A stretch of 64,000 nucleotides of DNA, taken from Thermoanaerobaculia bacterium. Lineage in GTDB: Bacteria; Acidobacteriota; Thermoanaerobaculia; UBA5066. Below are positions 6,907 through 54,319 of this stretch, piece by piece; position 1 is the stretch's first letter; the number at the start of each line of letters is the position of its first letter. The notes under the pieces are model-generated. The model saw nothing but the letters and a program-made list of their open reading frames with translations, searched no databases and had not been told where the DNA came from. The DNA lies in assembly GCA_963719225.1 (NCBI GenBank), contig CAVRAY010000001.1, positions 2,656,001 to 2,720,000 on the forward strand, in the 5' to 3' direction. The position numbers were made by a program, and so were the translations under genes.

Positions 6907-8350
6907 CTCGAACCTCCTTCACGAACGCCGCGATCTTCGCCGGGTCTTTGACTCCCGGCGCCGTCTCGACGCCCGACGAGACGTCCACGACGTCGGGTCT
7001 CACCTTCCTCACCGCGTTCGCCACGTTCCCGGGCTGCAGTCCGCCCGCGAGCACCACGGGTCTCGAGCGATCGATCCCTTCCAGGAGACTCCAGTCGAAG
7101 ACGCAGCCCGTGCCGCCTCCCGCTCCGGCGACGGACGTGTCGAAGTGGAGGGCATCGCCTTCGGCTTTGCTCGCCGAGGAGAGGTCGTCGCGGCCGACGC
7201 GAATGGTGTTCCAGAACGTGATGTCCGAAGAGAAGAATTCCTTAGAAGGTGAAAGAGCGGGGTTGGGCATTTGAACGACGTCCGGGCGGACAAGGTCGAC
7301 GATGCGCTGCACGTCCTCTTCCGTCGCCGTCTCGTCGAAAACCGCCACGACGCCCTTCACGCTGCCTTTCGCTTTCATTCGCAGAAGTCTCCCCTCTTCA
7401 GGCGTCAGTCGCCGCGGCGACCGCGGCGCGAAGACGAGGCCGATCCAGTCCACGCCCTGTTCCAGACAGGCATCCACGTCTTCCCCCCGCGTGATCCCGC
7501 AGATCTTGACCTCCGTCGCGTTCTCGCCGCGCAGCGCGCGCAGCGTCGCGGCGGGGTCCGTAGCCTTGAGAAGCGTCTCACCCACCAGAAAGGCACCATA
7601 GCCCGCGGCGGCGAGCGCCTCGACATCGTGCCGCGACCGGATGCCGCTCTCGGCCACGCGCGCGACCGACGCCGGAAGGAGCGCGCCGAGGCGCGCCATT
7701 CCGGCCAGGTCGACTTCGAAAGTCCTCAAGTCGCGTGAATTCACGCCGACGATCTCGGCGCCCGCGCCGAGCGCCCGCTCGATCTCCCCCTCGTCGTGCG
7801 CTTCCACGAGAACCGCGAGTGCGCGGGACCTCGCGGCCGCATGGAGCCGCCCGAGGGTGGCGTCATCGAGGGCCGCGACGATGAGAAGCACGGCGTCGGC
7901 GCCCAGAGCGGCCGCAAAGTCCAGCTGGATCTCGTCCACCACGAAGTCCTTCATGAGGACGGGCAGGCCCGACGCCGCCTTCGCGCGTGGCAGCCACGAG
8001 GGGTCGCCGCCGAAGAAATCCTGCTCGACGACGACGGACACCGCCGAGCCGCCGCCACGCCGGTAGGCGCGCGCGACGGTTTCGATGCGCGACGCGGCGT
8101 CGGGAAGGATCAACCCCGCGCTCGGCGAGCGGTGCTTGATTTCGGCGAGAAACACAGGAAGAGGAAGAGAAGAGATTTGCTTAGAAGGGGAAGAGAGGGA
8201 ACGCGCGAAGCCGACTCCGTCCGGCGGAGCAGCGGGCTGCGCTGCAGCGGCAGAGGCGCGCACCTGGGCACCCATCTTGGCGGTGAACTCCCCCGCCGCG
8301 ATGCGCCGCCGCTTTGCCGCGAGAATCTCGCTCAGAACCGATTCGCCCAC
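6899..8350 (-). CDS. trpCF: Bifunctional indole-3-glycerol-phosphate synthase / PRA isomerase (TrpC-TrpF fusion)
   Basis: [27 protein letters not shown], then [29 protein letters not shown]. Confidence 0.95.
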
Positions 8351-8375
8351 CCCTCTTACCCCTTCTAAGCAATCT

Positions 8376-9419
8376 TCAATCTTCTCTCTCGTCCCCTCGC
8401 GAGATCCGAATGAGATCTTCGAGAGCCGTCGCCGCTTTCCCGTCCTCGAGCGCGGCCTCGGCCCGCGCCACGCCTTCCCGGAAATCCGAGGCGATGCCCG
8501 CCACGACGAGCGCGGCGGAGGCGTTCATGAGCACGACGCTCCGCGCGTCGCGCCGGAAGCCGCCGAGGACGGCCCGCAGAATCTCCGCGTTCGTCACGGC
8601 GTCTCCGCCACGGAGCGCGTCGGGGCTGCCATCGTCGAGGCCGAAGTCCACCGGGCCGAGCTGCAGAAGCTCGACGTCCCCGCCGCGAACCTCGGCGGCG
8701 AAGGTGCGGCCGAAGGGCAGGAGCTCGTCCCCTCCCGTCTCGTGCGAAAAGACGAGTCCGTGCTCCGTCCCGAGCGCCGCGAGGGCGCCGGCGATCACCG
8801 GGACGCGCTCGGGATGATCGACGCCGACGATCTGACGTGTGACGCCGGCGGGATTCGAAAGAGGCCCGGCGAGGTTGAAGACGGTGCGCAGGCCCAGCTC
8901 GCGCCTGAGCGGACCGACCTTCTTCATCACGGGGTGATAGAGCGGCGCGAAGAAGAACGTGACGTTCGCGCGGGCGAGCGCCTCGGCGGCGAGCACGGGC
9001 GACATCTCGATGTCGACGCCGAGCGCCGCGAGCACGTCGGCCGAACCGCAGGCGGAGGAAACCGCGCGGTTGCCGTGCTTGGCGACCGGCGCGCCGGCTC
9101 CGGCGGCGACGAAAGCGGCGGCCGTCGAGACGTTGAACGTGCCGAGTGAATCGCCTCCGGTGCCGCAGACGTCGATCGCGCGCGCGGCCAGCGCGGCATC
9201 CACCGGAGGCCTCAGCGAGCGCGCCCGGAGGGCGTCCACGGCGCCCGCCACGGCCTCGACCGTCTCGCCCATGGCGGCCAGGGCCGAGAGAAGGCCTCCC
9301 GCGATCGCCGCCGGGATCTCCTCGTCGAGGAGCGCCGAGACGGCGCTCCTCGCGTCCTCGCGCGTCAGGCGCCTTCCACGCGTCACGGAATAAAGCGCGC
9401 GATGGGCCGCCGTCGTCAT
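8376..9419 (-). CDS. trpD: Anthranilate phosphoribosyltransferase
   Basis: DVCGTGGD, FNVST, AKHGNRAVSS, GSADVL, RTVFNLAGPLSNP; ATGA overlap with trpG. Confidence 0.96.
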   Translation of the reverse strand: MTTAAHRALYSVTRGRRLTREDARSAVSALLDEEIPAAIAGGLLSALAAMGETVEAVAGAVDALRARSLRPPVDAALAARAIDVCGTGGDSLGTFNVSTAAAFVAAGAGAPVAKHGNRAVSSACGSADVLAALGVDIEMSPVLAAEALARANVTFFFAPLYHPVMKKVGPLRRELGLRTVFNLAGPLSNPAGVTRQIVGVDHPERVPVIAGALAALGTEHGLVFSHETGGDELLPFGRTFAAEVRGGDVELLQLGPVDFGLDDGSPDALRGGDAVTNAEILRAVLGGFRRDARSVVLMNASAALVVAGIASDFREGVARAEAALEDGKAATALEDLIRISRGDERED

Positions 9420-9985
9420 GCGAGCCGCCCGGCGACGAAATTCTTCAGGAGACGCTCCCCCTGGGGCGTGAGGATCGACTCGGGATGGAACTGCACGCCC
9501 ACGAGCGGGAGTGTCCGGTGCGCCAGTCCCATCACGAGGCCGTCCGCGCTCGTCGCCGTGACGCGCAGCGCGGCGGGTACCGAATCCTTCTCGACGACGA
9601 GGGAGTGATAGCGCGTGGCCGTGAACGGGTTCTCGAGGCCTTCGAAGAGCCCTCTCCCGTCGTGCGCGATCTCGGAGGTCTTTCCGTGCATGAGGACGGG
9701 CGCCCGGGAGACCTTTCCGCCGAAGACGGCGCCCAGAGCCTGATGGCCGAGACACACGCCCAGGAGCGGGATGGTCTCGTTCCGGCGGAAGAGCTCGCAC
9801 GAGATCCCGGCATCCTCGGGGCGGCCCGGCCCCGGTGACACGACGAGCCGGTCGGGCTTCGCGGCGAGAACCTCGTCCACGGACAGGGCGTCGTTCCGCA
9901 CCACGCGGACGTCGTCGTCGAGGGTCGACAGAATCTGGACGAGGTTGTATGTGAAGGAATCGTAGTTGTCGATCACGAGGATCAT
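9416..9985 (-). CDS. trpG: Anthranilate synthase component II (glutamine amidotransferase)
   Basis: IDNYDSFTYNL, SPGPG, GVCLGHQ, RYHSL, QFHPES. Confidence 0.96.
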   Translation of the reverse strand: MILVIDNYDSFTYNLVQILSTLDDDVRVVRNDALSVDEVLAAKPDRLVVSPGPGRPEDAGISCELFRRNETIPLLGVCLGHQALGAVFGGKVSRAPVLMHGKTSEIAHDGRGLFEGLENPFTATRYHSLVVEKDSVPAALRVTATSADGLVMGLAHRTLPLVGVQFHPESILTPQGERLLKNFVAGRLA

Positions 9986-11364
9986 CGGTACGTCCCCGCT
10001 CTCTCCACGGCGCGCATGAGAGCGCGCGCCTTGTTCTCGCATTCGGTGGCCTCGGACTCTGGATCCGAGTCCGCGACGATCCCCGCCCCGGCCTGGATGT
10101 GCATCGTGCCGTTCGCCACGACCGCCGTTCGAATCGCGATCGCGACGTCGAGGTTGCCGGCGAAGTCGAGATAGCCCACGGCTCCCCCGTAGGCCCCCCG
10201 TCTCACGGGCTCGAGATCCTCGATGATCTCCATCGCGCGAATTTTCGGCGCCCCGGTCAGCGTGCCCGCCGGAAACGTGGCGGTCAGCGCATCGACGGCG
10301 CCCTTGTCGGGCGCGAGGACGCCCGTCACTCGCGACGCGATGTGCATGACGTGCGAGTAGCGCTCGACGTGGAAGAAGTCCTTGACCCGGATGCTGCCGG
10401 CCTTCGCGACCCGGCCGAGGTCGTTCCGGCCGAGGTCCACGAGCATCACGTGCTCGGCGCGCTCCTTCGGGTCGGCGACGAGCTCCCTCTCGAAGGCGAG
10501 GTCCTCCTCCCGCGTCGCCCCACGCGGCCGGGTCCCGGCGAGCGGAATCGTCTCGGCCGTCGACTCTCCCGCTGAGGCGGCCACGTGGACGAGACGCTCG
10601 GGGGACGCGCCGAAGATCGCGCCGTGAGGCGTTCTGAGGTAGTACTGGTAGGGCGAGGGACTGAGGGAGCGCAGGGCGCGATAGACCGCGAAGGAATCGC
10701 CCGTGAACGGCGCGGACCACCTCCGCGAGAGGACGACCTGGAAGACGTCCCCCGCGCGGATGTGCTCCTTCGCGCGCTCGACGGCGGACAAGAAGGACGG
10801 AAGAGGAAGAGATTCTTCGAATGAGAGAGAGGGGGACGGAGCCGGAGCCGTGGGCACGGGCGTCGCGGTGGCGCGGGCTTGAAGGTCCCGTAGCCTTTCG
10901 AAGGCTCTCTTGTCCTCGCCGGTTCCTTCCCCGGCGTGGGTGACGAAGAGAAGCCGGTGACGCACGTGATCGAACGCGATGACCGCGTCGAAGATCCCGA
11001 ACCAAGCGTCGGGCATCCCGATCGGGTCAGGCTTCGAGTCGGGCAGCCGCTCGAGCCGGCGCACCGCGTCGTAGCCCACGTAGCCGACGGCCCCGCCCGT
11101 GAAGGGAGGCAGGTCCTCGCCTCCCGCCGCCGTCACGTGGCGAGGAAGCGTCCGGAGCGCGTCGAAGGGATCGCTCGCCCGGCCCGAGATCTCGCCCGAC
11201 GGCGACGCGCCCAGGAACGACCAGCGCGCGACACGGTCTCCGCCCTCGACCGATTCGAGGAGGAAGCACGGCCCACCCCCGGAGAGGAGTCCACGCATCA
11301 ACGCGACCGGAGTCGTGAGATCCGCCGGCTGCTCGACGACGACCAGCTGCCCGGGCGCTTTCAC
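9982..11364 (-). CDS. trpE: Anthranilate synthase component I
   Basis: [47 protein letters not shown]. Confidence 0.96.
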
Positions 11365-12794
11365 GGCCTCTCTCGGCGCGGCGCCTTCCGGCGCTCGACG
11401 AGCTTCAGAGCGACCTCGCCCGGCGCGACGCCGCGCGCCGTCAGGAGAACGGCGAGATGGTAGAGCAGATCGGCCGCCTCGCCGGCGAGCGCTCCCGCGT
11501 CGCCGGTGACCGACGCGAGCGCCGTCTCGACGGCTTCCTCCCCCACTTTCTGGGCGATGCGCGGCACGCCGGCATCGAGGAGCTGATTCGTGTACGACCC
11601 GGCGACCGGCGACTCCTTCCGCGCGCGGACGACCGCGAAGAGAGCCGTGAGGTCGAGCGCGTCCGCGGATCCCGCATCCTTCCCGGCGACCCCCAGCGTC
11701 TCGACAGACGAGAAACACGAATCCGCCCCGGTATGGCAGGCCGGACCCGACGGACGAACGTCGTAGAGCACGGCGTCGTCGTCGCAGTCGAGCGAGATTC
11801 CGACGACGTGCTGCACGTTTCCGGACGTCTCCCCCTTCTTCCAGAGCTCCTTCCGCGATCGGCTGTAGAAGTGCGCCAGGCCGGTCTCCCGCGTCCTGGC
11901 GAGGGCCTCCGCGTTTGCCCAGGCGAGCGTGAGGACGTTGCCCGTCACGACGTCACGCATGATGACGGGGACGAGCCCGCTCGCGTCGTAGCGGGGCAGG
12001 AGAGTGCGCACGTGCGCCGGCGCGGGACGAACCGCGAGCCCGGCCCGGCGCATCGCTTCCTTGACCGCGCCTACCGTGAAGACGCGGTCGTGGAAAAGTG
12101 AGGCCGCGAGCACGGCGTCCGCGCCGCCGATGACGACGGCCTTTGCGAAATCGTCGAGCTGGCCGGCTCCCCCTGAAGCCACGATCGGAACCTCGACGGT
12201 CGCACGCACCGAACGGAGCATCTCGAGGTCGAACCCCGCCTGCGTTCCATCCGCGTCGACGGACGTCAGGAGGATCTCGCCCGCGCCCGCTGCGGCTGCC
12301 GCGGAGGCCCATCCCGTCACGGTCCGGTCGGTCGGACGGCGTCCCCCATGCGTCATCACGCGCATCACCGAGACGCCGCTCGCGTCGCGCAGACGCTTGC
12401 CGTCGATCGCGACGACGACGCATTGCGATCCGAATTGCCCGGCAAGCCTCGTGATGAGAGAGGGGTCTTCGACCGCGGCGGTGTTCACGGTCACCCGGTC
12501 GGCCCCGGCGCGGAGAAGCGCATCCGCGTCCTCGACGGACCGGACCCCTCCACCAACGGTGAACGGGATCGAGAGAGCTTCGGCCACGTGCGAGACGAGC
12601 TCCACGAGCGTGCCGCGCTTCTCGTGAGCGGCGCGGATGTCGAGGAATGCCAGCTCGTCGGCGCCTTCTGCCTCGTAGCGCACCGCGGCCTCGACCGGAT
12701 CGCCCGCGTCGCGGAGGCTTTCGAACGAGATGCCCTTGACGACGCGCCCGCCCGCGACGTCGAGGCAGGGGATGACGCGAACCGCGACCGTCAT
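11361..12794 (-). CDS. hisF-hisIE: HisF-HisI-HisE fusion (IGP synthase cyclase + PR-AMP cyclohydrolase + PR-ATP pyrophosphatase)
   Basis: RVIPCLDV...LLTSVDADG...ASGGAG (HisF); [23 protein letters not shown] (HisI); [14 protein letters not shown] (HisE), all in one frame. Confidence 0.93.
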
Positions 12795-13588
12795 GAAGAC
12801 CTCCCCTGGTCGCGGGCCGCCCTCAGCCGCGACACTGTCGTGGCGCCGGAATGAAGCGCGCGGCCGAGGATGGCGCCGCGAGGTCCGCCCGCGAGCGCGT
12901 GGTTCACCAGCTCGAGGTCTTCTTCGCCGCGCATGCCGCCCGACGCGAGGATCTCGCCTCCGAACACGCGGCGCACGGCGGACAGGAGCTCGAGATTCGG
13001 GCCGGTCATGGCCCCGTCCCGCGAAACGTCCGTGACGAGAAGAGCCGAGACGCCGAGATCCGCGAGCGAGCGGGCGGCGGAAACGGCGTCTCCCATTCCG
13101 GCATCCTCGGTCCAGCCACGCACCGTCGGACGCCCGTCCTTGCAGTCGAGAGCGACCACGATGCGGGACGACAAAGACGAAGAGGAAGAGGAAGAGGAAG
13201 AGGAAGATTTTCTTAGAAGGTGCGTGAGGGCTGCGCGGTCGAGCAGCGCAAGGCTGCCGATAACCGCGCGTGCCCCGTTCCCCCTTTCTAAGAAATCTTC
13301 AACAGCTGCGGCCGTACGCAGCCCTCCCCCGACCTGCACAGCGACCCCCGCAGCGTCCGAAACAGAAAGAATTTCTTCGATCTCCTGTTCGTTGCTGCCC
13401 GTCCCGAACGCCGCGTCGAGGTCCACGACGTGGATCCCGTCGGCGCCCTCGGAAGCGAATCGCTCCGCGGCCCGGGCGGGGGGCTCGTCGTAATACGTCA
13501 CCTCTTCGCGCTTGCCTTTCAGCAGCCGGACGACGTGGCCGCCCATGACGTCGATCGCGGGCCAGAGAGCGAGTCGCTCGTCGCTCAC
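12791..13588 (-). CDS. hisA: ProFAR isomerase HisA with poly-Ser insertion
   Basis: [38 protein letters not shown]. Confidence 0.95.
13179..13207. repeat. (GAAGAG) x about 4.8 tandem repeat encoding the Ser run in HisA
   Basis: gaagag gaagag gaagag gaagag gaaga, directly adjoining a TTCTTAGAAGG motif. Confidence 0.85.
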
Positions 13589-14214
13589 GCCGCGTCCTCT
13601 CTAAGAAAATTCGAAAGGAGGATGCGGCCGCTTTCCGACGACTTCTCCGGGTGGAACTGGCAGCCCCAGACGCTTCCCCGCTGCACGATGGCGGCGAATT
13701 CCCCGCCGTGGTCGCAGGCCGCCGCGACGTCCGCGGCGTCGACGCCCTCGGGCCTGAAGGAATGGACGAAGTAGACCCAGCTTCCGTCCGGCAGTCCCTC
13801 GACGAACCCGTCGGGGCGACGGGTCAGGAGCTGGTTCCAGCCCACGTGGGGCGTGCGGACGCGCGCGCCGAAGGGGCGGACGCGGCCCGGCACGAGCCCG
13901 AGACCCTTGTGCACTCCGTGCTCCTCGCTTTCCTCGAAGAGGAGCTGGAAGCCGAGGCACAGGCCGAGGAGCCGCCCTCCGCGCTTGACGGCGGCACGCA
14001 CGGCGGACTCGAGGCCGGTCTCGAGAAGGCGGCTCATCGCCGGTTCGAAGGCGGCGACGCCGGGAAGCACGAGCCGTCGGGCGGATGCCACGCGGTCGAG
14101 GTCGGCCGTGAAGTCCACCTCCGCGCCGAGGCGACGGAACGCCCGGATCACCGAGGCCGTGTTGCCGACCCCGTAGTCGACGAGCGTGACGGACGAGCCG
14201 GCGGGCGTCGTCAT
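13585..14214 (-). CDS. hisH: IGP synthase glutaminase subunit
   Basis: VDYGVGN, LPGV, GLCLGFQLL, PHVGWN, YFVHS, QFHPEKS. Confidence 0.96.
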   Translation of the reverse strand: MTTPAGSSVTLVDYGVGNTASVIRAFRRLGAEVDFTADLDRVASARRLVLPGVAAFEPAMSRLLETGLESAVRAAVKRGGRLLGLCLGFQLLFEESEEHGVHKGLGLVPGRVRPFGARVRTPHVGWNQLLTRRPDGFVEGLPDGSWVYFVHSFRPEGVDAADVAAACDHGGEFAAIVQRGSVWGCQFHPEKSSESGRILLSNFLREDAA

Positions 14215-15870: not shown

Positions 15871-17273
15871 GGCGCCCTCCGTTCGAGCGCGGCCGCGTGC
15901 GCCGCGAGGCCTTCGAAGCGCGCGAGAGCGGCGGCCGGCCGCGCGAGCCGGCGCGCGGCGTTCGCCGTCGCCTTCACCGATCGGCCCCAGCGCCGGAAAT
16001 CGCGCACGGAGAGGCCCGAGAAGCTGCGCGCCGCGCCCCCGGTCGGGAGCACGTGGTTCGGACCGGCGAGGTAGTCACCGAGCGCGGTCGGTGTCGAAGA
16101 GCCGATGAAGAGGGCGCCTGCGGTCGGAAGAAGCTTGCCGCTGAATCTCTCCGCGGACTTCCCCATCAACTGCACGTGCTCTGCGGCGATCTGCGAGCCG
16201 GCGGAAGCAGCGAGAGATATTTCTTTGAAAATGAAGATCCGGCCGCGCCGGAACAGCGAGGCGCGCGCGGCGGCCGCATTCACCTTCAAGGAAAACGAAT
16301 CGAGGGCTCGCAATTGGGCCGAGACCGCGGCCCGTACTGCGGCGGCGAGCCTGCTTGAATTCGTAAACAGAAGACACATCGCGTCCGGATCGTGCTCGGC
16401 CTGTGCCAGAAGATCCGCCGCCACGAGGTCCGCGTCGGCATCGGCGGAAGCGACGATCAGGACTTCCGACGGACCCGCCGGCATGTCGACCGCCACGAGG
16501 CCCGACACGAGGTGCTTCGCCGCCGCTACGAAGCGGTTGCCGGGGCCCACGATCTTCGCGACACCACAGACGGAGACGAGCCCCGCGACTCCGTGAGCGC
16601 CCCCCGCGAGCAGCACCTCGTCGACACACAGCTCGCGCGCCGCCCACCGGAGCTCGGGACTCGCCTCCCAAGCGTTGGGCGGCGTCGCGACGACCACGCG
16701 CGGCACCCCCGCGACGCGCGCCGGCACGACGCCCATCAGGAGCGAAGACGGATAGAACGCACGGCCTCCCGGGACGTAGACGCCGACGGATTCGAGCGGC
16801 ACGGATTTCTCGACGAACGAGACGCCGAGGGAGTCCTTGAAAGAGAAGCCCGACGAAGACGATGAGAGCTGCTTGCGGTGATACGCCTCGATGCGGCGGC
16901 GGGCGAGGCGGAAGGCAGAAGCGAAAGACTGATCCACACGAGATGGCTTTTCAAGACACGGATCAATACAGATCTTCTTAGAAGGGTAATGGGGCCGCTC
17001 GCTTTGTCGCACCGCCGTCGTCGGTCCGTCACGCCGCTGCCCCTCTCCCCCTTTCATAGAAACCGTTCTCTTCGAACCGTGGGCGCGCGCCGGTTTGAGG
17101 TCGAAGCGCTCCACGTACTCCCGGAGCGCGGGTTCCCCTCTTCGCAGAACGTCCTCCACAACCGGCAGGATCTGCTTCAACGTGGAGAAGTCGGGCGCCG
17201 CGCCCCGCCGGCTCTTCAACAGCGTTTCCAGCTCCCGTCGCCCCTCGCGCGTCGACGCGTCGACGGTCTTCAT
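15867..17273 (-). CDS. hisD: Histidinol dehydrogenase with N-terminal insertion
   Basis: GVYVPGG, YPSS, KIVGPGN.FV, DMPAGPSE, LAQAEHD, GDYLAGPNHVLPT. Confidence 0.95.
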   Translation of the reverse strand: MKTVDASTREGRRELETLLKSRRGAAPDFSTLKQILPVVEDVLRRGEPALREYVERFDLKPARAHGSKRTVSMKGGEGQRRDGPTTAVRQSERPHYPSKKICIDPCLEKPSRVDQSFASAFRLARRRIEAYHRKQLSSSSSGFSFKDSLGVSFVEKSVPLESVGVYVPGGRAFYPSSLLMGVVPARVAGVPRVVVATPPNAWEASPELRWAARELCVDEVLLAGGAHGVAGLVSVCGVAKIVGPGNRFVAAAKHLVSGLVAVDMPAGPSEVLIVASADADADLVAADLLAQAEHDPDAMCLLFTNSSRLAAAVRAAVSAQLRALDSFSLKVNAAAARASLFRRGRIFIFKEISLAASAGSQIAAEHVQLMGKSAERFSGKLLPTAGALFIGSSTPTALGDYLAGPNHVLPTGGAARSFSGLSVRDFRRWGRSVKATANAARRLARPAAALARFEGLAAHAAALERRAP

Positions 17274-18913: not shown

Positions 18914-20490
18914 GCGGGAATCTCAGGATGGGGATGAAGCGACTCTTCGAAGAATTGGAAAGCCATCCGCAAGCGGGAAGGCAGGCGCTCGAGAAGCTCT
19001 CTTGGAGTCGTCCGCTTTCCCGTGAAAAGCGTTGCCTGGCCCGCGGCCTGGAGCAGGAGCAGCGTCTGCCCATCCACGACGCGCGCCCCGGCAGCGCGTG
19101 CCGCCTTCGCGAGCTCGGTGCCGCCCTCTCGGTAGGGCGCGTCGATGACGAGCATACCGGGGCGGAGGAGGCCCGGGTCGCACGGGAGGGGATCCCCCGC
19201 GCGGAGACCGAGGGAGGTGGCGTTGACGATGACACTCGCGGCGGGCCATGCCGCTTCGGACTTCTTCGAAAGCGCGCGCACGCCGGTTTCTCTGGCGAGG
19301 TCTTCGCCGCGCTCCTTGGTCCGGTTCGAGAGGAAGACCTCCCATCCCCTTTTTCTAAGAACATCCACCGCGACCCGAGCCGCACCACCAGCCCCGAAGA
19401 CGATTGCGACCCCCGCATTCGCTTTCTCTTTCCTTTTCTCCCTCAAAGGATCTTCAATCACGGCCTCGAAGGCATCGCGATCCGTGTTTGTCCCGCGCAG
19501 TCGGAGCGGCTGGCCCGGGGCGCTCGACCTGAGCAGCGTGTTGACCGCCTTCTCGCCGTCCTCGTCCGTGCCGGCGAGATGCGCGGCCTCCTCCTTGAAC
19601 GGGATGGTCACGGACGCGCCGGCGAGAGGAAGTCCGAGGCTGTCGAACGTCGCGACCAGCGGCTCGAGCTCCTCCGTTAGCGAGCGCATTGCGAACGGTA
19701 CGTAGAGCGAATCCTGACTGAGCGCCTCGAAGCTCGCGTTGTGGAGGGCGGGCGAGAGTGAGTGCGAGACGATGCCTCCCAGGAGTCCGAAGAGCCGGGA
19801 CACCTTTCGCCTCCGGCCGACGCCGTAGATCTCCGCCAGGTCGAGGGCGAGGAGCTGCCCCGGCGCCGTCCCGCGCCCGGGAAGGAGGGCGCCGTACGCG
19901 AGCGAAGCCCCGAGATACGGCGCGAGTGCGCGCGTGCAGATGCCGACCTCTCCCATGCCGAACGTCGAGAGGCGCCCATCCCGATGGGCGGCCTGGAGCT
20001 CGAGGAGACGGCGGGCATCGCCTGAGTCGTTCGCCGTCGCCACGACTTTCACGAAGCGAGCCTGCGTCGCGAGCATCCGGGCAACGAGGGTGCTCATGTC
20101 GGCAGGGATGCCCTCCGGGTCATGAAGAGAGAGAATTTTCTTAGAAGGGGAAATGCGGGCGGCCTCGTCCCCGCCGTCGCGGCGGAACTCCACGTCGCCG
20201 AGTTCAAACCCGGCGTCCAGAGCCTTCGAAATCAGTCTCTGGGCCTCCCCTGCCGGTCCCCGGAACGTGCCGCCTTCTGATGCGGATCGGACGGTCGCAA
20301 CGAGTGTTCTTCCTTCAAAGCACGCGCGAAGCGCGCCGAATTCGGGCTCTTCGGACATGGCGTCGAGGCGCAGCTCCAGCGCGACCGAGGGAGGCAGCTC
20401 GGCGAGAGCGGAACATGCCCCCAGCGCTTCGGCGTTCGAAGCCGGAGCCACCGAGACGACGAGAAGCGTGTTTTCCGCGGTCTGGGCCAA
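18910..20490 (-). CDS. aroDE: Type I dehydroquinase - shikimate dehydrogenase fusion (AroD-AroE)
   Basis: ELRLD, EGG, SLHD, GMG, APGQ then HSLSP, SVTIPFKE, AVNT, NTD, GAGGAAR. Probable TTG start at 20490 with GGAGG upstream. Confidence 0.88.
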   Translation of the reverse strand: MAQTAENTLLVVSVAPASNAEALGACSALAELPPSVALELRLDAMSEEPEFGALRACFEGRTLVATVRSASEGGTFRGPAGEAQRLISKALDAGFELGDVEFRRDGGDEAARISPSKKILSLHDPEGIPADMSTLVARMLATQARFVKVVATANDSGDARRLLELQAAHRDGRLSTFGMGEVGICTRALAPYLGASLAYGALLPGRGTAPGQLLALDLAEIYGVGRRRKVSRLFGLLGGIVSHSLSPALHNASFEALSQDSLYVPFAMRSLTEELEPLVATFDSLGLPLAGASVTIPFKEEAAHLAGTDEDGEKAVNTLLRSSAPGQPLRLRGTNTDRDAFEAVIEDPLREKRKEKANAGVAIVFGAGGAARVAVDVLRKRGWEVFLSNRTKERGEDLARETGVRALSKKSEAAWPAASVIVNATSLGLRAGDPLPCDPGLLRPGMLVIDAPYREGGTELAKAARAAGARVVDGQTLLLLQAAGQATLFTGKRTTPRELLERLPSRLRMAFQFFEESLHPHPEIPA

Positions 20491-20668: not shown

Positions 20669-22177
20669 TCAAGGCTTCCTCCTCCAACGCACGCCCTGGG
20701 GCGTGTCCTCGAGGACGATTCGCTTGCCGAGGAGCTCGTCGCGGATCGCGTCGGCGCCCTTGAAATCCCGGGCCTTCCGGGCCTGCCTTCGGGCCTCGAT
20801 GCGCTCCAGGATCCAGGTCTCGTCAAGGTCGATGGATTCGGAAGAGGATTTCTTGGAAGGTGAAGAGGGGACCGGCGCATCGGGAGCGGAAGCGGCCGAA
20901 CCCACCAGGATGCCGAAAACGTCGCCTGCGACCTCGCTCAAGAGACCTCGTGCGGCCGTCGCATCCGGCGCCGAAAGGTGCCCCGCTTCGAGATCCATGT
21001 TCGTCGCCTTGACGAATGAGAACAGCGCACCCAGGGCGGCGGCGGTGTTCAGATCGTCCTCGAGAGAGGAGAACACCGCGGCGCGCGCCGCCGTCACTCG
21101 CTCCGCGAAGCCCTCTCCCGCTGCCTCCGGCATATTCACCTTCGAAGAAATCTCCTCCTTTTCTCTTCTCCCCTCTCTCTCTCCCAGCCGCATGTCCAGC
21201 GATTCCAGTCGCTCGACCGCGGATGTCGCCGCCTTGAGCCCCTCGAGCGTGAAGTTCAGCTTCATGCGGTAGGGAACCGAGACGAGGAGATAGCGGATGG
21301 CGCGCGGCGAGAAGCCTTTCTCGAGGAGGTCGGGAAGCGTGTAGAAGTTCCCCTTGCTCTTCGACATCTTCTCGCCGTCCACGAGGAGGTGCTCGGCGTG
21401 GAGCCAGAGGTTGACGAACGTCTTCCCGGTCGCGCCTTCGCTCTGCGCGATCTCGTTCTCGTGGTGCGGAAAGATGTTGTCGACGGCGCCCGTGTGGATG
21501 TCGAAGGTCTCGCCGAGATACTTCATCGACATCGCGCTGCACTCGAGGTGCCAGCCGGGCCTCCCGCGGCCGAGCTCGGTCGTCCACGACGCGGACTCGG
21601 GCTCGCCTTCCTTCGCCGCTTTCCACACCGCGAAATCGCGGACGTCCTCCTTCTCGTACTCGTCGTCGGCGACGCGCGCTCCGCGTTTCACGGCCGAAAG
21701 GTCGATCTTCGAGAGCCTTCCGTAGGCCGGAAACGTCGCGATCCGGAACCAGAACGAGCCGTCGCTTTCGTACGTGTGTCCGCGGTCGGCGAGCTTCCGC
21801 ACGAGCGCGACCATCTCGGAGATGTGATCCGTGGCGCGAGGATAGAGCGCGGCCGGGACGACGCCGAGCGTGCCGAGGTCCTCGAAGAACGTCGCGATGT
21901 GCCCCGCCGTGAACTCGCGGAGCGGCAGCCCCGACTCCACGGCGCCACGGATCGTCTTGTCGTCGATGTCCGTGAGATTCATGATCTGGGTCGTCTCGAA
22001 AGAGAGAGCGCGGAACACGCGGCACATCACGTCCTCCCAGACGAACGTCCTGAGGTTGCCGATGTGCACGCGGTTGTAGACCGTCGGGCCGCAGGTGTAG
22101 AGCCCGACCTTCCCCTCTCGGACGGGTCTGAACTCCTCGACCGTGCGGGTCAGAGTGTTGAAGAGGCGCAGCGTCAC
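20669..22177 (-). CDS. cysS: Cysteinyl-tRNA synthetase
   Basis: YTCGPTVY, HIGN, TDIDDK, GRPGWHLECS, FPHHENE, KMSKS; GTG start 22177. Confidence 0.97.
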   Translation of the reverse strand: MTLRLFNTLTRTVEEFRPVREGKVGLYTCGPTVYNRVHIGNLRTFVWEDVMCRVFRALSFETTQIMNLTDIDDKTIRGAVESGLPLREFTAGHIATFFEDLGTLGVVPAALYPRATDHISEMVALVRKLADRGHTYESDGSFWFRIATFPAYGRLSKIDLSAVKRGARVADDEYEKEDVRDFAVWKAAKEGEPESASWTTELGRGRPGWHLECSAMSMKYLGETFDIHTGAVDNIFPHHENEIAQSEGATGKTFVNLWLHAEHLLVDGEKMSKSKGNFYTLPDLLEKGFSPRAIRYLLVSVPYRMKLNFTLEGLKAATSAVERLESLDMRLGEREGRREKEEISSKVNMPEAAGEGFAERVTAARAAVFSSLEDDLNTAAALGALFSFVKATNMDLEAGHLSAPDATAARGLLSEVAGDVFGILVGSAASAPDAPVPSSPSKKSSSESIDLDETWILERIEARRQARKARDFKGADAIRDELLGKRIVLEDTPQGVRWRRKP

Positions 22178-34772: not shown

Positions 34773-35255
34773 TTACCTCGCCGCGCCACCCTCGACGATT
34801 TCGACGAGGTGGCGGACCTTCTGGACCTGGCCCCGAACCGTCGGGGTGTCGGGGCGGACGACCTCGTGGCGGATGCGCCGAAGGCCGAGCCCGAAGAGAG
34901 TGTGTTTCTGGTCGACGGGCGCGCAGATGCCCGATTTGATCTGGCGAATACGGATTTGCTTCGGAGCGGCCGCTGCGGCGGCCGCAGGAGCCGCCGCCTT
35001 CGCGGCGGCCCGGGGTTGCTTAGAAGGGGAAGATGTCAGCGCCGCAGCACTCTCACCGGTCGCGCTTTCTGGGGCCGCCGCGTCGACCTGCGAAGGCACA
35101 TTCACCTTCGAAGAAACTTCGGACGATTCGGCCTTCTTCGCCGCAGCAGTCTTCAGCTCCGCCGGGCCGGCCTGCGCGGGGGTACTCACTTTCGAAGAAG
35201 TCTTCTTCTTCTCGGTCTTCCTCTCGATTCTGTCGGTCTTTTCCGTCTCGCTCAT
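34773..35255 (-). CDS. rpmD: 50S ribosomal protein L30 with about 100-aa low-complexity N-terminal extension
   Basis: C-terminal IRIRQIKS...TL.GLGLRRI...DTP.VRG...KVRHLV; ATG overlaps the rpsE stop. Confidence 0.88.
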
Positions 35256-39186: not shown

Positions 39187-39693
39187 CTACTTCTTCTTGC
39201 TTTTCTTGCTGGGAGCGGACTTGGCCTTCGGAGGAGCGGCCGTCTTCCCCTTAGGTCCTGAAGATTTCTTAGAAGGGGCCTGAGCCTTCGCAGCCGCGCC
39301 GCCCGTCTTCGAGCCCGTCGCCGCAGCCGTCTTCTTCTTGTGGGCGGCCGCGCGCTTCTTCGCGCCTTTGCCCGTTGCCGCGGCGTGGGGCTTCGGTTTC
39401 GCCGTCCCCGCCGCGCTCTTCTCATTCGCAGAAATCTTCTCTTCGGTCCCCTCCGAAACCCCAGTCTCATGAGTCTCGGCGGCCGCAGCGGCCGCCGCCT
39501 CGGCCGCGCTCATGTGCTGCGCGGTCTTCAGGCGGGCGATGTCCTTGCGGAGCTCCTTGATCTTCATGGGATTCTCGAGCTGGCCCGTAGCCTTCTGGAG
39601 GCGGAGCGTGAAGAGGGACTGCGCCCACTCCTTCGCCTTGGCGGCCTTTTCCTCGGCGGACCAGTCGAGCATCGCCTGGATCTTCATCGTCAT
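39187..39693 (-). CDS. rpmC: 50S ribosomal protein L29 with about 105-aa Lys/Ala-rich tail
   Basis: [16 protein letters not shown]...RKDIARLKT, located between rplP and rpsQ. Confidence 0.9.
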
Positions 39694-48004: not shown

Positions 48005-48198
48005 AACGAGTGTGTCCCGTCCCGGGGTGTCTGCGCCGTCGATCGCAGTGTTTCCGCGGTTGCCGAATCGGGCCGGCGCCGGGAACCTGAGATCCGCACG
48101 CTGTGAGGCGTGTCCGGGCTTCTCGAGAGGACCTGTCCGGGTCTGCGCCTTTCAGCGCCGACCGGCCGGTTTCCGCTCACCCGGAGAAGTGTGCAGTC

Positions 48199-48678
<480 letters not shown>

Positions 48679-49053: not shown

Positions 49054-49210
49054 GAGAGTTTCGAGACTCCTTCGGACATGAAAAGACGATGGGACGACCC
49101 GTTGAAGGAAGACGACGGAGCGGAATCAGCCGAGTCGACGGCCGAACGGCTGTCCCAGAGGCGCGACACGACCTTTTCGCCGCCGAGCCGGTCCCCGGGG
49201 AAACCGGTGG

Positions 49211-49239
49211 AGAATATAGGTCCCGGCGGGGGCTGTCAA
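49211..49239 (-). promoter_or_regulatory. Sigma70 promoter of the str operon
   Basis: TTGACA (49234-49239), 17 bp spacer, TATTCT (49211-49216). Confidence 0.7.
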
Positions 49240-50180: not shown

Positions 50181-50290
50181 GTTACGAGACGGACATTTCT
50201 CGCGCCGAGGGGCTCCTGAAGGAATTTCCGGCACGCAACGTGAAACAACACCGGTGTGGCGGTATGGAAGCCACGAAAAGGAGGGAGAAA

Positions 50291-50530
50291 ATGGTCCTTC
50301 TCGAGACTTTCACGGATCAGGCGCCCGGCTCCCTTCAAGGTCCGGAGGCGGTGATCGAGCTTTGCCCGCGCTGCGGAAGGCCTGGCGTGGAACGGCGCTC
50401 GGCCGAAGGCCGCGTCTGCGTCCATGCCGAAACGTCGGAGCTTCTTGCCGACGGCCTGCTGACGATGCCCGTCGAGTCGTGCCCGCTCGGACCTCTTCCG
50501 TTCGACGTCCACGATCCCGACGTGATCTGA
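50291..50530 (+). CDS. Small hypothetical protein with CPRC motif
   Basis: GAGGGAG ribosome-binding site before ATG 50291; CPRC...CVH...C. Confidence 0.5.
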   Translation: MVLLETFTDQAPGSLQGPEAVIELCPRCGRPGVERRSAEGRVCVHAETSELLADGLLTMPVESCPLGPLPFDVHDPDVI

Positions 50531-50570
50531 GGTTTCCGAGATAGGCTTCCGTCGATTAGACGGAGGCCTC

Positions 50571-52343
50571 ATGTCGCAGCCGGCTGCTTTTCCGGCGAAC
50601 GTTCGCGCACGCCGGACGCTCGCCCCTCTCATCCTAGTTGTGCTCTGGGCGGCACCCGGGACCGCGTCCGGGACGATCCCTTCGCCGCTGCGTTTCGCCG
50701 TCTCCTTCCCGAAGGAACGCAGCGCGGCGCCGCTCGACGGACGTGTCTACCTCATGCTGTCAACCGACCCGGCCGAGGAGCCTCGAAAGCAGATCTCGAT
50801 CGGCCTCAAGACGCAGCAGATCTTCGGCATCGACGTGGAGCGTCTCCTGCCCGGGGTGGATGCGGTCTTCGATGCGGCCGTCCTCGGCTATCCGGTCGAC
50901 AGCCTCGCGCGCGTTCCGAAGGGGACGTACATCGTCCAGGCTCTTCTCCATCGCTACGAGACGTTTCGCCGCGCCGACGGCCACGTCGTCAAGCTCCCGA
51001 TGGACCGCTGCGAAGGGCAGCACTGGAACCTCGCGCCGGGCAACTTCTACTCGACGCCGCGGAAAATCGACGTCGACCCCTCCCGGTCCGACACGATTCG
51101 GATTGCGCTCGACCAGGTGATCCCGCCCATCCCCGATCCGCCCGCCACGAAGTGGATCCGGCACGAGAAGATCCGGAGCGAGCGCCTGTCCAGGTTCTGG
51201 GGGCGGGACATGTATCTCGGCGCGCACGTGCTCCTTCCCCTCGGCTTCGACGAGCACCCGGAGGCCCGCTACCCCTTCGTCATCTTCCACGGCCACTTCC
51301 CCGAAACGTTCGGCGGCTTCCGCGAGGAGCCGCCGGACCCGAACCTGAAGCCGAAGTTCAGCGAGCGGTTCCATCTCGAGGGCTACAACCGAATCGAGCA
51401 GGAACAGGCCCACCAGCTCTACAAGGACTGGACGTCTCCCGGGTTCCCGCGCGCGATCGTCGTCGAGATCCAGCACGCGAACCCGTACTACGACGACTCC
51501 TACGCCGTGAACTCCGCCAACCTCGGGCCTTACGGCGATGCGATCGAATACGAGCTCATCCCGTACCTCGAGAAGAAATACCGGGCGCTCGGCGCCGGCT
51601 GGGCGAGATTCGCTTACGGCGGCTCGACGGGCGGCTGGGAAGCCATGGCCGTCCAGGTCTTCTATCCCGACGACTACAACGGCGTGTACGTCGCCTGTCC
51701 CGACCCCATCGACTTCCGCGCGTACACGGTCATCAACCTCTACGAGGACACGAACGCCTACGTCCCCGACTCTCCCTGGAAGAAGATTGCGCGCCCGGCC
51801 CAGCGCGACGCCTTCGGGACGATCTCGGCGACCGTCGAGGACACGAACCGGCTCGAGCTCGTCCTCGGGACGAACGGCCGCTCGGGCGAGCAGTGGGACA
51901 TCTGGCAGGCCGTCTACTCGCCGGCTGGCGCCGACGGCTACCCGAAGCCGATCTGGAACAAGCGGACCGGAGTCATCGACAAGGAGGTCGCCGCGTACTG
52001 GAAGGAGCACTTCGACCTCACGCACATCCTGAAGCGCGACTGGGACAAGGGACTCGGGAAGAGGGTCGAGGGCAAGCTCCACATCTTCGTGGGCGAGGCG
52101 GACAACTACTTCCTGAACAACGCGGTCGTCCTCGCCGAGGAGTTCCTGAAATCGGCGAAGAACCCGCCCTCCGGCGCCTTCGTCGACTACGAGCCTCGCG
52201 CCGAGCACTGCTGGAACGGCGATCACACCCGCCCGAACGCGATCTCCCGCTTGCGCTACCATCAGATGTTCTTGCCCAGGATCGTCGAACGCATCCGGAA
52301 GTCTGCGCCGCCTGGGGCCGACTTAAGTAGCTGGAATTACTAG
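50571..52343 (+). CDS. Secreted alpha/beta-hydrolase (esterase-like) protein
   Basis: Signal peptide; GGSTGG nucleophile-type motif; typical codon usage. Confidence 0.7.
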   Translation: MSQPAAFPANVRARRTLAPLILVVLWAAPGTASGTIPSPLRFAVSFPKERSAAPLDGRVYLMLSTDPAEEPRKQISIGLKTQQIFGIDVERLLPGVDAVFDAAVLGYPVDSLARVPKGTYIVQALLHRYETFRRADGHVVKLPMDRCEGQHWNLAPGNFYSTPRKIDVDPSRSDTIRIALDQVIPPIPDPPATKWIRHEKIRSERLSRFWGRDMYLGAHVLLPLGFDEHPEARYPFVIFHGHFPETFGGFREEPPDPNLKPKFSERFHLEGYNRIEQEQAHQLYKDWTSPGFPRAIVVEIQHANPYYDDSYAVNSANLGPYGDAIEYELIPYLEKKYRALGAGWARFAYGGSTGGWEAMAVQVFYPDDYNGVYVACPDPIDFRAYTVINLYEDTNAYVPDSPWKKIARPAQRDAFGTISATVEDTNRLELVLGTNGRSGEQWDIWQAVYSPAGADGYPKPIWNKRTGVIDKEVAAYWKEHFDLTHILKRDWDKGLGKRVEGKLHIFVGEADNYFLNNAVVLAEEFLKSAKNPPSGAFVDYEPRAEHCWNGDHTRPNAISRLRYHQMFLPRIVERIRKSAPPGADLSSWNY

Positions 52344-52510
52344 TACTTAGATCAAATATGGGCTTGCCGCGAGCTCGGCCGAAACACCGGCTCCGAGTCT
52401 TGGGGGTCCTCTACATGCAAGTTCATCAGAGACGCCCGGGTCCCGGGGCCGCCAACATTAGGTAGGCGCTCCGGGCCCGGCCCCGGTTCCGGAGACGCTC
52501 GGGAGGAACC

Positions 52511-52945
52511 ATGAAAAACATCTCTCTCATCGCGCTGGCAGCGGCGCTGCTGGGTTCGGCGGTCTACGCGGCCGAGGAAACGAACCCGGCCTCGGCATCG
52601 GCAGGGGCCCATTTCAAGCTCGCCATCATCACGAGCGACAAGTACTCGCGCGACGAAAAAGGCGTTTTCGCACCCGATGCTCCGAAAGTCTTCGCGGTGT
52701 ACCGGGTCATCGTCGGACAGGGGACGAAGGTGAAGGCCTCGTGGTTCGCCGAGAAGGTCGCGGGCCTCGAGCCAAAGACGAAGCTGGCCGAGAACGAAAC
52801 GACGTTCTCGTCGAAGGGCGAGTTCATCGGCTCCTTCTACTGCTCGAAGCCGCCTCAGGGCTGGCCGGTCGGCAGCTACTCCGTCAACCTGTACATGGAC
52901 GGCGTGCTCAGGAAGACGCTCGGGTTCCGCGTCGAGAAGAACTAG
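52511..52945 (+). CDS. Secreted hypothetical protein
   Basis: GGAGG ribosome-binding site, signal peptide, W..G.Y.V Ig-like motif. Confidence 0.65.
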   Translation: MKNISLIALAAALLGSAVYAAEETNPASASAGAHFKLAIITSDKYSRDEKGVFAPDAPKVFAVYRVIVGQGTKVKASWFAEKVAGLEPKTKLAENETTFSSKGEFIGSFYCSKPPQGWPVGSYSVNLYMDGVLRKTLGFRVEKN

Positions 52946-52948
52946 GCG

Positions 52949-53377
52949 TCAGCGACGTCCGGACGAGACAGCCGGCAGGATCTCGAACCCCATCTGCCGG
53001 AAATGCCGATCGGTCGTCAGAGCCTGCTTGAGCCGGAGCTCCTGCATGACGACGAGGCTCGTGCAGTCCGTGAAGGAGTAGTTCTTGTCGCGATGCCGGA
53101 AGAAGACGCGCCGCGCCTTCTCCGCCCGCGTAACTCCGATCCACTCCCACCGTACACGGGAGCTCCCTTCGACCTGAGTCCACCAGTTCTGGGCAGCTGA
53201 GAGGCTCAGCCTCATCCGGATCAGAGTCAGAGTCTCATCCAGCACGTAATCCGTTGTGACGAGGATATTGCCCTTCTCGAGTGCCTCATCGCGCGCTGCA
53301 CACGCTCTGCCGTTCACGGGGTCGGAACCGTCTGCGCAGGCCATCCAACCGGCCGTGTCGACGAAGATCCCCTTCAT
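52949..53377 (-). CDS. vapC: VapC-family PIN-domain toxin
   Basis: IFVDT, TDYVLDET, SFTDC.S, TTDRHF; ATGA overlap with the antitoxin. Confidence 0.88.
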   Translation of the reverse strand: MKGIFVDTAGWMACADGSDPVNGRACAARDEALEKGNILVTTDYVLDETLTLIRMRLSLSAAQNWWTQVEGSSRVRWEWIGVTRAEKARRVFFRHRDKNYSFTDCTSLVVMQELRLKQALTTDRHFRQMGFEILPAVSSGRR

Positions 53378-53622
53378 CGCCCGTACAGCACTTCGTCGTG
53401 CCGGTCCGCCGCTCCGCCGTCCACGGAGCGACCCACGGCCTTCGCCCGATAAAGGGTGTCTGCCTCGAGCTCCGGCAACGACGCGGTCATTTCCTCCGCG
53501 GGAACGATCTGGAACGCCGCGCGGCTGCGGTAAATCACGGTGAAACGCGCCCCCTTGCGAACGCGCTCGACCACTCTCGGCAGGGACGCTCGGAGCTGTT
53601 TCGCGTTGATGGTGATGTTCAT
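53374..53622 (-). CDS. Phd/YefM-family antitoxin
   Basis: INAKQLR..L...VE.V.KG....V; 82 aa immediately upstream of the PIN toxin. Confidence 0.8.
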   Translation of the reverse strand: MNITINAKQLRASLPRVVERVRKGARFTVIYRSRAAFQIVPAEEMTASLPELEADTLYRAKAVGRSVDGGAADRHDEVLYGR

Positions 53623-53712
53623 GGCGGCTCCTCACGACAAGTTCATTTTGAGTTGAACACGTTTCCCGGAGGTGCGTCAAGTGGCGGCGCCACCCGGGCT
53701 CGTCCGCACGGA

Positions 53713-53946
53713 TCATCCAAGCCGCCTCACGAAGTCCCGAAGAAGCGAGACGATCCGCGGCAACCTGCGCCGAGCGGGCTCGACGTTCTCGTGGTCGAAC
53801 GGGCAATGGCGGCAGCCCGAGCCGCAGCAGGCGCCGCGGCGGAGCAGATACGCGGTCGTGAAGACCTCGTATCCCGTCTCCGGGTCGAGGTACGTGTCTT
53901 TCCCCTCGGCGATGGCCGCCGCGTGCAGCCGGTCGATCTCGTCCAC
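53713..53946 (-). CDS. Small Cys-rich protein (DUF5522-like)
   Basis: H..A...G...Y.DP.TGY.VFT...L..RG.CCGSGCRHCP. Confidence 0.75.
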   Translation of the reverse strand: MDEIDRLHAAAIAEGKDTYLDPETGYEVFTTAYLLRRGACCGSGCRHCPFDHENVEPARRRLPRIVSLLRDFVRRLG

Positions 53947-53969
53947 GGACGGATTCTGATGAAATCAGA

Positions 53970-54254
53970 ATGCTTTGCGCGAACGTCTTCCGGAGCCGCG
54001 TCCATCGGCGACTCATGAAGCCGGAGGCGGCGCGCGATGCATTCGGGATCCTGCGCGGCCTGCCCCTGAGGGTGGTCGCGTCTGGAGAGCTCTCGTCCGC
54101 GGCGCTGGACCTCGCCCTCGACGCCGGAATCTCCGTCTACGACTCCGTCTATGCGTCCCTCGCCCGCATGCTCGCCGTTCCGCTCGTCACGGCGGACGGC
54201 CGCCTGATCGCCACGCTCCGGAAGGCCGGCGTCGCGGCCCTGCCTCTCGTGTAG
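53970..54254 (+). pseudogene. N-terminally truncated PIN/VapC remnant
   Basis: SVYDSVY..LA...LVTAD.RL present; the N-terminal VVD strand is missing and no antitoxin is adjacent. Confidence 0.6.
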
Positions 54255-54259
54255 GTCGG

Positions 54260-54293
54260 AGAAGGAAACGGGGCCGGCTTTTCGCCGGCCCCG
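54260..54293 (-). terminator. Intrinsic terminator downstream of rpoC
   Basis: 10-bp inverted repeat CGGGGCCGGC/GCCGGCCCCG (54269-54293), followed on the minus strand by TTTCCTTCT. Confidence 0.75.
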
Positions 54294-54319
54294 GGAATTT
54301 GCTTGGAAGGTAAGAGGGG

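Follow-up and report, generated by a model that had tools for sequence, protein, structure and literature searches.

Why should an AT-rich word recur, in every reading frame, through genes such as trpCF, hisA and cysS on a chromosome of 68% GC? The question is raised by a stretch of 64,000 nucleotides, hereafter the window, from the assembly of a Thermoanaerobaculia bacterium (GCA_963719225.1; Acidobacteriota). This window spans C1:2656001-2720000 in a genome of 4.75 Mb, G000, assembled in two contigs, C1 and C2 (completeness 97%, contamination 6%). Working from the letters of the window, a first-pass annotation had proposed that the word is a cryptic motif selected as DNA or RNA and not as protein. 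We find that it is one arm of a genome-wide signal whose unit is a facing pair and whose density climbs towards the replication terminus; the pairing and the terminus gradient are additions to that earlier reading.

The motif was described by a 25-position matrix trained on G000 with a hard threshold and a local background; soft expectation-maximisation fitting drifted to AT-rich DNA and was discarded. The matrix has a purine-rich lead-in, (A/T)T, the core TTC-TT(A/C)-GAA, and then (G/A)G(G/T)GAA..G. Sites were counted above 16 bits in the genome and above 12 bits in the window, against gene calls made in this analysis (3976 genes, 89% of the genome).

Measured against an order-4 Markov model of the whole genome, TTCTTAGAA is the most over-represented 9-mer (273 copies, 6.7 expected). 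The word CTTAGAAGG, for which at least eight exact copies had been claimed in the window, has exactly 8 there and 207 in the genome, where 10.3 are expected. The matrix finds 856 sites genome-wide, compared with 2-7 for column-shuffled matrices. The reversed genome gives 152 matches above 16 bits, a control that is inflated because the motif is partly its own mirror; when reversed, the motif pattern itself matches 0-3 times per genome.

Most of the sites (590/856, 69%) are in coding sequence and 266 are outside called genes. The coding sites fill all six frames (91, 124, 82, 114, 135 and 44), as the first-pass annotation had held, rather than the single frame that would indicate a protein motif. 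Its claim that the centre is changed where a stop codon would arise also stands: TTA is found at 0/91 and 0/135 centres in the two frames concerned and outnumbers every other centre in the remaining four. Sites hold 67 of the genome's 264 TTA codons. Synonymous shuffles that leave the proteins unchanged, five by genome-wide permutation and five within genes, do not remove the enrichment. The real genome has 582 coding matrix hits, compared with 67-72 after genome-wide permutation and 98-117 after within-gene shuffling; there are 166 exact 9-mers against 0-7, and 171 facing pairs against 2-12. Intergenic DNA is preferred, with 5.8-11.3 sites per 10 kb against a coding-side figure of 1.4. No bias of the host genes towards repair or competence was evident in a rough pattern-based list, drawn up without a statistic. 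The motif also accounts for unusual insertions rich in Ser, Lys and Glu in these proteomes, and for their rare codons and apparent extensions.

Conservation was followed in 20 relatives from the same genus. The his, trp, aro and cysS sites have identical codon positions and orientation in these genomes; the hisA pair is kept in 18/20 and the trpE arm in 19/19 relatives. Where the amino acid is unchanged, codons ending in A or T are kept at 399/480 positions (83%) inside sites and at 2020/7383 (27%) outside. Amino-acid identity is lower inside sites (778/1230, 63%) than outside (48357/61699, 78%), and at trpCF codons 323 and 370 the reading frame of the site differs between species. This keeping of rare codons where residues are poorly conserved, together with the frame switches, supports selection on nucleic acid and not on protein, as had been proposed. 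DNA is favoured over RNA as the selected molecule because four tests of partner pairing in RNA or single strands were negative (see below). In a comparison with orthologues in 400 kb of G083, from the sister genus, 35/66 sites differed by substitution only, 24 came with an insertion of at least 3 residues and 7 lay outside the alignment, some of these comparisons being to kinase paralogues. In this comparison, sites arise in place.

The arrangement of neighbouring sites is strongly ordered. Among neighbours less than 300 bp apart, 278 are convergent, 11 divergent and 79 tandem, and 17 of the 24 sites in the window sit in facing pairs. Spacing is below 70 bp in 27 pairs, 70-79 bp in 43, 80-99 bp in 61, 100-139 bp in 73 and 140-299 bp in 74. 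The mode is at 74-77 bp, with a tail to 300 bp, and only 1/278 pairs is closer than 30 bp. In other genomes, 29/73 distinct loci in the range 68-98 bp have the 74-77 bp spacing. No helical phase of 10-11 bp was detected in the pair spacing (global p 0.40). The arms are independent copies of one consensus and not complements of each other. Of the 278 pairs, 169 have both arms within one and the same gene, and 72 are wholly outside called genes, although some of the latter are in kinase genes whose start was miscalled here.

A weak facing partner accompanies 53/199 lone sites, whereas each of the three other orientations is found for only 4-7. For the lone arm in trpE, one relative has a strong partner, and a few others have a weak one at 84 bp. 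Because lone arms can persist and trpE is partnered in few relatives, it seems that partners are added onto existing arms. In a tandem array of Ser/Thr kinase paralogues (G000 C1:2293328-2319611) and at other loci, two corresponding codons, separated by 93 bp and flanking helix C, carry a pair; this helix C pair also occurs in sister-genus genomes. In the hisA gene of G011 (L139:1957-2135), a tandem, in-frame duplication covers the whole pair unit.

Mapping relative to origin and terminus, which the first-pass annotation had suggested, gave a gradient. The dnaA gene and parS map to C2 at about 330 kb, the turn in GC skew is at 2.1 Mb on C1, and dif, conserved class-wide beside a second parAB operon, is at C1:2037570. 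On C1 alone, site density falls with distance from dif through 29.4, 24.8, 22.5, 11.6 and 11.1 per 100 kb, a change of about 2.6-fold, and density correlates with dif distance at rho −0.74 (100 kb bins). None of the C1 controls follows this fall: GC, 9-mers matched in composition and the rare Leu codons that lie outside sites either stay level or trend the opposite way. Towards the terminus, intergenic DNA alone goes from 4.2 to 13.4 sites per 10 kb and the fraction of genes carrying a site from 4.7% to 15.3%. Both chromosome arms rise, from 3-6 to 17 and from 6-8 to 19 clusters per 100 kb, given the assumed contig order. Even 1.2-2.1 Mb away from dif, density is still 11 per 100 kb, so that the signal is not limited to a terminus macrodomain. 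In G146, the 28% of the genome that surrounds dif holds 22/33 matches (p 5e-6), and in G083 5/7 are within 0.5 Mb of dif. Strand bias is absent, the lone sites dividing 91 versus 108 and the figure within 0.5 Mb of dif being 36/67, and no polarity relative to replication or dif was seen. A classical skew of FtsK-orienting polar sequences (KOPS) exists in G000, separate from the motif.

Contig C2 carries duplicated genes, and origin-side values that use it are therefore less secure. The duplicates include ruvC and a uvrD-like gene (C2:620000-870000), which suggests contamination of C2 by a related strain.

Several other features were observed. The second parA-parB operon lies directly at dif (G000 C1:2037570-2039524; L141:7570-9524), dif is within a few hundred bases of ParB2 in most loci fetched, and the operon is possibly a terminus-partition system. 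Besides its main dif, the sister-genus genome G083 has another dif-like sequence, 1 Mb away at its C1:2715946, whose centre differs. Two arrays of repeats ending in GATATCGTTAG, spaced at intervals of 0.5-3.5 kb, are found at G000 C1:2197269-2208291 (10 repeats) and C1:1103017-1113420 (8 repeats), and resemble integron attC cassette arrays; a tyrosine recombinase gene is at C1:1115037. A second word enriched near the terminus, TATCGTTA, is part of the cassette-like arrays and was set aside as separate from the motif system.

In the window, 24 sites above 12 bits were found between 7243 and 54304; the earlier figure of about 28 recurrences was a looser count. The peptides that had been named are all present: PSK in trpCF, hisD, aroDE, cysS, rpmD and rpmC, LLR and FLE in hisA, FEE/FKE in trpE and hisD, and SSKVN/SLKVN in cysS, rpmD and hisD. 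In trpCF, the arm at 7233-7257 (+, 32.8 bits) is antisense to the gene and gives SPSKEFF; it faces position 7382 at 139 bp and occurs at the same place in relatives, in two frames. Its partner at 7368-7392 (−, 17.3 bits) reads GRLLRMK in sense, and another frame (GISLKER) is used in 3 relatives. In the 5′ part of trpCF, 8172-8196 (+, 32.4 bits, SPSKQIS) faces 8367 at 185 bp, the partner at 8353-8377 (−, 31.1 bits) being in the trpD-trpCF intergenic region. The trpE arm at 10807-10831 (+, 30.3 bits, LSFEESL), present in all 19 relatives, is alone, its best facing partner reaching 5.5 bits at 84 bp.

The hisA gene has an arm at 13204-13228 (+, 31.2 bits, THLLRKS) which faces 13290 at the modal spacing of 76 bp. 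Its partner at 13276-13300 (−, 30.2 bits, EDFLERG) has kept TTA in 11/18 relatives with Leu at that position. A copy that the first-pass annotation listed in hisH (13603 here; 13589-13613, −, 16.6 bits), in the 3′ end of the gene, is weak, is found in 0/20 relatives and is either doubtful or recent. In hisD, 16215-16239 (+, 29.3 bits, FIFKEIS) faces 16289 at 64 bp, where 16275-16299 (−, 18.6 bits) gives SFSLKVN. In the 5′ part of the same frame, 16969-16993 (+, 30.0 bits, YPSKKIC) faces 17057 at 78 bp, where 17043-17067 (−, 18.0 bits) gives TVSMKGG.

The aroDE gene contains a weak arm in its 3′ end (18937-18961, +, 13.2 bits) and two arms on the other strand, at 19343-19367 (−, 19.2 bits, VDVLRKR) and 19432-19456 (−, 18.7 bits, EDPLREK). 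The first of these two has a facing partner at codon 409 in most relatives, degraded here to 8 bits. The arm at 20132-20156 (+, 34.4 bits, SPSKKIL) is alone in this genome and is partnered at codon 87 in 8/18 relatives. In cysS, named by its translation and not by a family match, 20844-20868 (+, 32.0 bits, SPSKKSS) faces 21145 at 291 bp, the partner at 21131-21155 (−, 32.0 bits) reading EISSKVN.

The ribosomal protein genes rpmD (L30; 34773-35255) and rpmC (L29; 39187-39693) encode low-complexity extensions of about 100 residues, each with motif arms. In the N-terminal extension of L30, 35011-35035 (+, 24.2 bits) faces both 35111 at 90 bp and 35195 at 174 bp; these are the arms 35097-35121 (−, 29.3 bits, EVSSKVN) and 35181-35205 (−, 25.0 bits, KTSSKVS). 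In the C-terminal extension of L29, 39260-39284 (+, 26.7 bits) faces 39429 at 159 bp, where 39415-39439 (−, 25.6 bits) reads KISANEK. The last arm, 54294-54318 (+, 26.6 bits), is intergenic, directly 3′ of the rpoC stop codon, with no partner within 600 bp. This copy (54304) and that at 8367 were correctly described as intergenic, both reading GGTAAGAGGGG.

Among sequenced genomes the motif is narrowly distributed. A search of species genomes with the pair pattern (46/64 parts) gave at least 118 loci, and all 80 among the matches listed are titled Thermoanaerobaculia or Acidobacteriota. A 15-base pattern occurs in 65-226 copies in 24/24 genomes of the genus, in 6-33 copies in 5/5 of the sister genus and in 0-2 copies in the order's other 81; a 12-base pattern gives 0-2 copies in 112 further genomes of the class. 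The motif-negative counts include two unpublished genomes (G025 and G030), and no claim depends on these alone. The sister-genome comparison that had been called for therefore finds the motif dense in one genus and sparse in its sister. Sister-genus sites are also paired (54 convergent, 8 tandem and 2 divergent), and 52/58 sister-genus loci, drawn from three genomes with some repeated, map within 300 bp of a G000 site. The orthologues of these loci number 1, 4, 9, 16 and 28 in successive fifths from origin to terminus. As sister-genus sites are paired and mostly orthologous, the signal predates the split of the two genera and has since expanded in one or shrunk in the other.

In viral collections, 9 matches to the pair pattern were found; every one is AT-rich (32-43% GC), and none has more than one matrix site. 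There were at least 120 matches to the single pattern; none among the matches listed had 3 or more sites and one exceeded 55% GC. Both sets are taken as chance. No other dialect of the motif was found near the terminus in 200-220 kb each of G144, G124 and G028. A genome of the sister family, G033 (L490-L499 and L171), has many convergent repeats of a Xanthomonas-like kind, with tandem arms of 7-8 nt and the G-rich arm first; the types are GTTTCAG, GTGTCAG, ATCGGGTG and TTTGTGA. A query with hisA (window positions 12791-13588) found no match in 16/16 genomes from the order's two other families, which suggests that histidine synthesis was lost there.

The explanation we prefer, with a probability of roughly 0.45, is that the arms are polar docking sites for a putative lineage-specific DNA-binding protein acting on the late-replicated, late-segregated DNA of the terminus side. 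We infer that such a reader protein exists. It would recognise double-stranded DNA with a direction and would matter more towards the terminus. Chromosome-architecture signals rise towards the terminus (PMC5993296, PMC11564523). A single arm would be useful alone, as lone arms are kept, and a facing partner would add to its effect. Since the arms have no fixed spacing beyond about 65 bp and no helical phase, two bound units would probably meet by sliding, by tracking or through a flexible bridge, and not by a rigid loop. A machine would meet the same view of a facing pair whichever side it came from, so that the pair would act as a two-way loading site or barrier. A more specific version, which we put forward tentatively, is an undescribed system in which a head-to-head polar pair at least about 65 bp apart loads or stops a sliding machine from both sides and is needed more terminus-ward. 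Such a layout would be closer to inverted helicase-loading sites, or to the paired boundary elements of eukaryotes and archaea, than to single-site bacterial motifs. If this version is true, the signal is valuable enough to rewrite hundreds of essential proteins in a free-living lineage, and a new grammar of bacterial DNA signals would follow.

A number of observations weigh against docking sites of this kind. No reader was found among the candidates examined. ParB2 has a match in all 121 genomes of the class, its helix GKSRV(T/S)(I/V)TE is unchanged in motif-negative genomes, and 0/17 outgroup loci have a site above 13 bits. A ZapT-like MerR protein has the same recognition helix in motif-free genomes, and FtsK gamma is 73-99% identical across the family, motif-free genomes included, these being whole-domain identities only. 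The syntenic block around dif contains no new DNA-binding gene except an ArsR-methyltransferase beside metK-ahcY. The sites are clumped and not evenly spaced (coefficient of variation of gaps 1.26 near the terminus), extend beyond any terminus domain and leave gaps of up to 150 kb. The pairs flanking dif in G000 are missing in G004, the gradient is weak in G041 (46/77 in 49% of the genome, p 0.035), and the sister genus gets by with at most a tenth of the sites. Finally, the genomes compared are kin and are therefore not independent tests.

It is possible, if doubtful, that the motif is instead a third DNA-uptake or recombination signal, akin to the DNA uptake sequences (DUS) and to the uptake signal sequences (USS). 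In one variant, an arm directs transfer of the tract ahead of it and is lost from the fragment end, so that only facing arms carry each other and pairs accumulate by drive; the lone arms that persist (trpE, 19/19) are contrary to strict mutual carriage. Copy number, six frames, intergenic preference, poorly conserved residues and lineage limit all match uptake sequences (PMC2817400). DUS pairs, however, lie within 21 nt of each other and form terminators, and one DUS is enough (PMC2397512), while here 1/278 pairs is below 30 bp, and uptake provides no evident reason for the terminus gradient. ComEC and ComEA are found in 5/5 genomes, with and without the motif, but ComEC is equally present where the motif is missing, and a pair that precedes comEA is missing in 4/4 further genomes of the genus. 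An extra secreted protein with tandem ComEA-type HhH domains is a weak candidate that tracks the motif loosely, being found in 20/24 genomes of the genus, 4/5 of the sister genus and 0/14 of genus g13, and sites are present in each of the 21 copies of its gene retrieved from the genus. Against this, neither query nor family search found it in four motif-rich genomes (180-370 contigs), and tandem forms occur in five motif-negative genomes. In G000 the protein is encoded at C1:1007226-1007921 (L370:9226-9921); the first of its two domains is distinct, with 75-95% conservation across the genus, and one or two motif pairs lie in the gene, one of which overlaps its start codon. An uptake signal here would be the first outside the two families with described uptake sequences (bioRxiv 10.1101/2025.10.24.684340).

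We consider it unlikely that the pairs are a self-spreading repeat that has landed in genes. Repetitive extragenic palindromic sequences and their paired forms (REP/REPIN), Rickettsia palindromic elements (RPE) and miniature inverted-repeat transposable elements (MITEs) have paired arms, and RPE lie in frame within genes. The fixed convergent order is that of the Xanthomonas heptamer repeats (PMC4692102), and G033 has convergent heptamer-armed repeats. Insertions accompany 24/66 sites, one hisA copy (L139) has its whole pair duplicated in tandem, and the host genes have no evident functional bias. However, the arms enclose native, conserved coding DNA (as at kinase helix C and in hisA) and not a common element body, and 35/66 sites formed without insertions or deletions. 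The consensus is held across a genus boundary, with 52/58 sister-genus loci close to a G000 site, and sites are 69% coding, compared with Xanthomonas repeats that are 89-93% intergenic (PMC4692102). A rough pattern search of the gene calls, made without a profile search, found no Y1 transposase.

Pairing of the two arms as a long stem in mRNA or single-stranded DNA has very little probability left. The arms, reverse complements of a single consensus, are able to fold (−25 kcal/mol for the mean duplex), and there is a small excess of core identity between partners (7.74 versus 7.65 ± 0.03), which was not borne out by the partner test: of 43 arms that carry TTC in a frame closed to TTA, 24 have a free partner with TTA and 5 one with TTC. 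Partner identity is 18.65 of 38 positions compared with 18.63 ± 0.18 for shuffled partners, and folding energies of real and shuffled partners are −32.7 and −32.6 as RNA and −16.1 and −15.9 as DNA. There are 418 G-U wobbles on the mRNA against 422 on the other strand, the spacers are unstructured (z 0.05 and 0.09) and Rfam gave no match. A partner-specific stem is thus largely refuted.

The lack of partner complementarity beyond that of random arms also tells against sites for inversion or excision of the enclosed segment, which we regard as scarcely credible. The inverted order and 70-300 bp spacing resemble those of invertible elements, and the motif core may resemble the XerC-side arm of Firmicutes dif. 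Partners nevertheless have no private sequence beyond the consensus, the enclosed segments have the same orientation in all aligned orthologues, and an inversion would disrupt cysS, ileS, rpmD and other essential genes.

A protein-level motif or compositional artefact is refuted: the 67-117 matrix hits that remain after synonymous shuffling do so because the peptides are themselves motif-shaped, while Markov enrichment, six frames, the shuffles, codon conservation, flat composition controls, 266 sites outside called genes and 0-3 matches per genome to the backward pattern all stand against it.

Few bacterial DNA signals overwrite proteins genome-wide, and the known ones (DUS/USS, KOPS and matS) each led to new machinery. 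The chromosome biology of Acidobacteriota is little studied, and the motif is apparently undescribed in the open-access literature, which excludes subscription journals. Under any reading, it provides a 25-base bait with rules of order and spacing for finding a new DNA-binding system in this phylum.

The analogues named by the first-pass annotation were aptly chosen, but none fits fully, since the unit is a facing pair and not a single word. Like the DUS of Neisseriaceae and the USS of Pasteurellaceae, the motif has hundreds of copies, is lineage-limited, is read in several coding frames, falls on poorly conserved residues and does not tolerate stop codons (PMC2817400; bioRxiv 10.1101/2025.10.24.684340). 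It differs in sequence and in its non-terminator pairs 65-300 bp apart, where DUS pairs are within 21 nt (PMC2397512). Its density also climbs towards dif, and the candidate receptor, the tandem-HhH protein, is found in 24/29 motif-bearing relatives and also in motif-negative ones.

With matS/MatP the motif shares a density that increases towards dif (PMC11564523) and an absence of strand bias, and with ZapT, whose binding peaks are mostly in open reading frames and near ter, its coding position (PMC7188993); MatP is limited to Enterobacteriaceae and Vibrionaceae (PMC7188993). In contrast to both, the motif's sites are about tenfold as numerous and are distributed along the whole chromosome and not in a bounded domain, and its asymmetric arms face each other; ZapT is without a consensus. 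The matS sites are, in addition, palindromic and single. Architecture-imparting sequences (AIMS), which include KOPS, similarly rise in abundance towards the terminus on both chromosome arms (PMC5993296), but they are octamers biased to the leading strand, whereas the motif is 25 bases long, unbiased and paired. The GGGAATC repeats of Xanthomonas likewise form many fixed convergent pairs with no leading or lagging preference (PMC4692102); their arms, however, are tandem heptamers, 89-93% intergenic and near stop codons, while the motif has one core per arm, is 69% coding and is conserved through substitution.

The remaining systems are more distant. Unlike parS and the Noc-binding sites (NBS) of the ParB/Noc family, the motif is not tracked by the ParB2 recognition helix. 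REP/REPIN, RPE and MITE differ from the motif in that it has no common element body or partner-specific complementarity and many of its sites were made without insertion; it differs from invertible elements in that partners are alike only at the consensus level. The methyltransferase-linked highly iterated palindrome (HIP1) type is a short perfect palindrome, compared with an asymmetric 25-base matrix with a variable centre. The motif therefore imprints proteins like an uptake sequence, has a gradient like that of matS and AIMS, and is ordered like the Xanthomonas repeats, and it fails a defining test of each; uptake-like imprinting, facing pairs and a terminus gradient are combined in none of the families tested.

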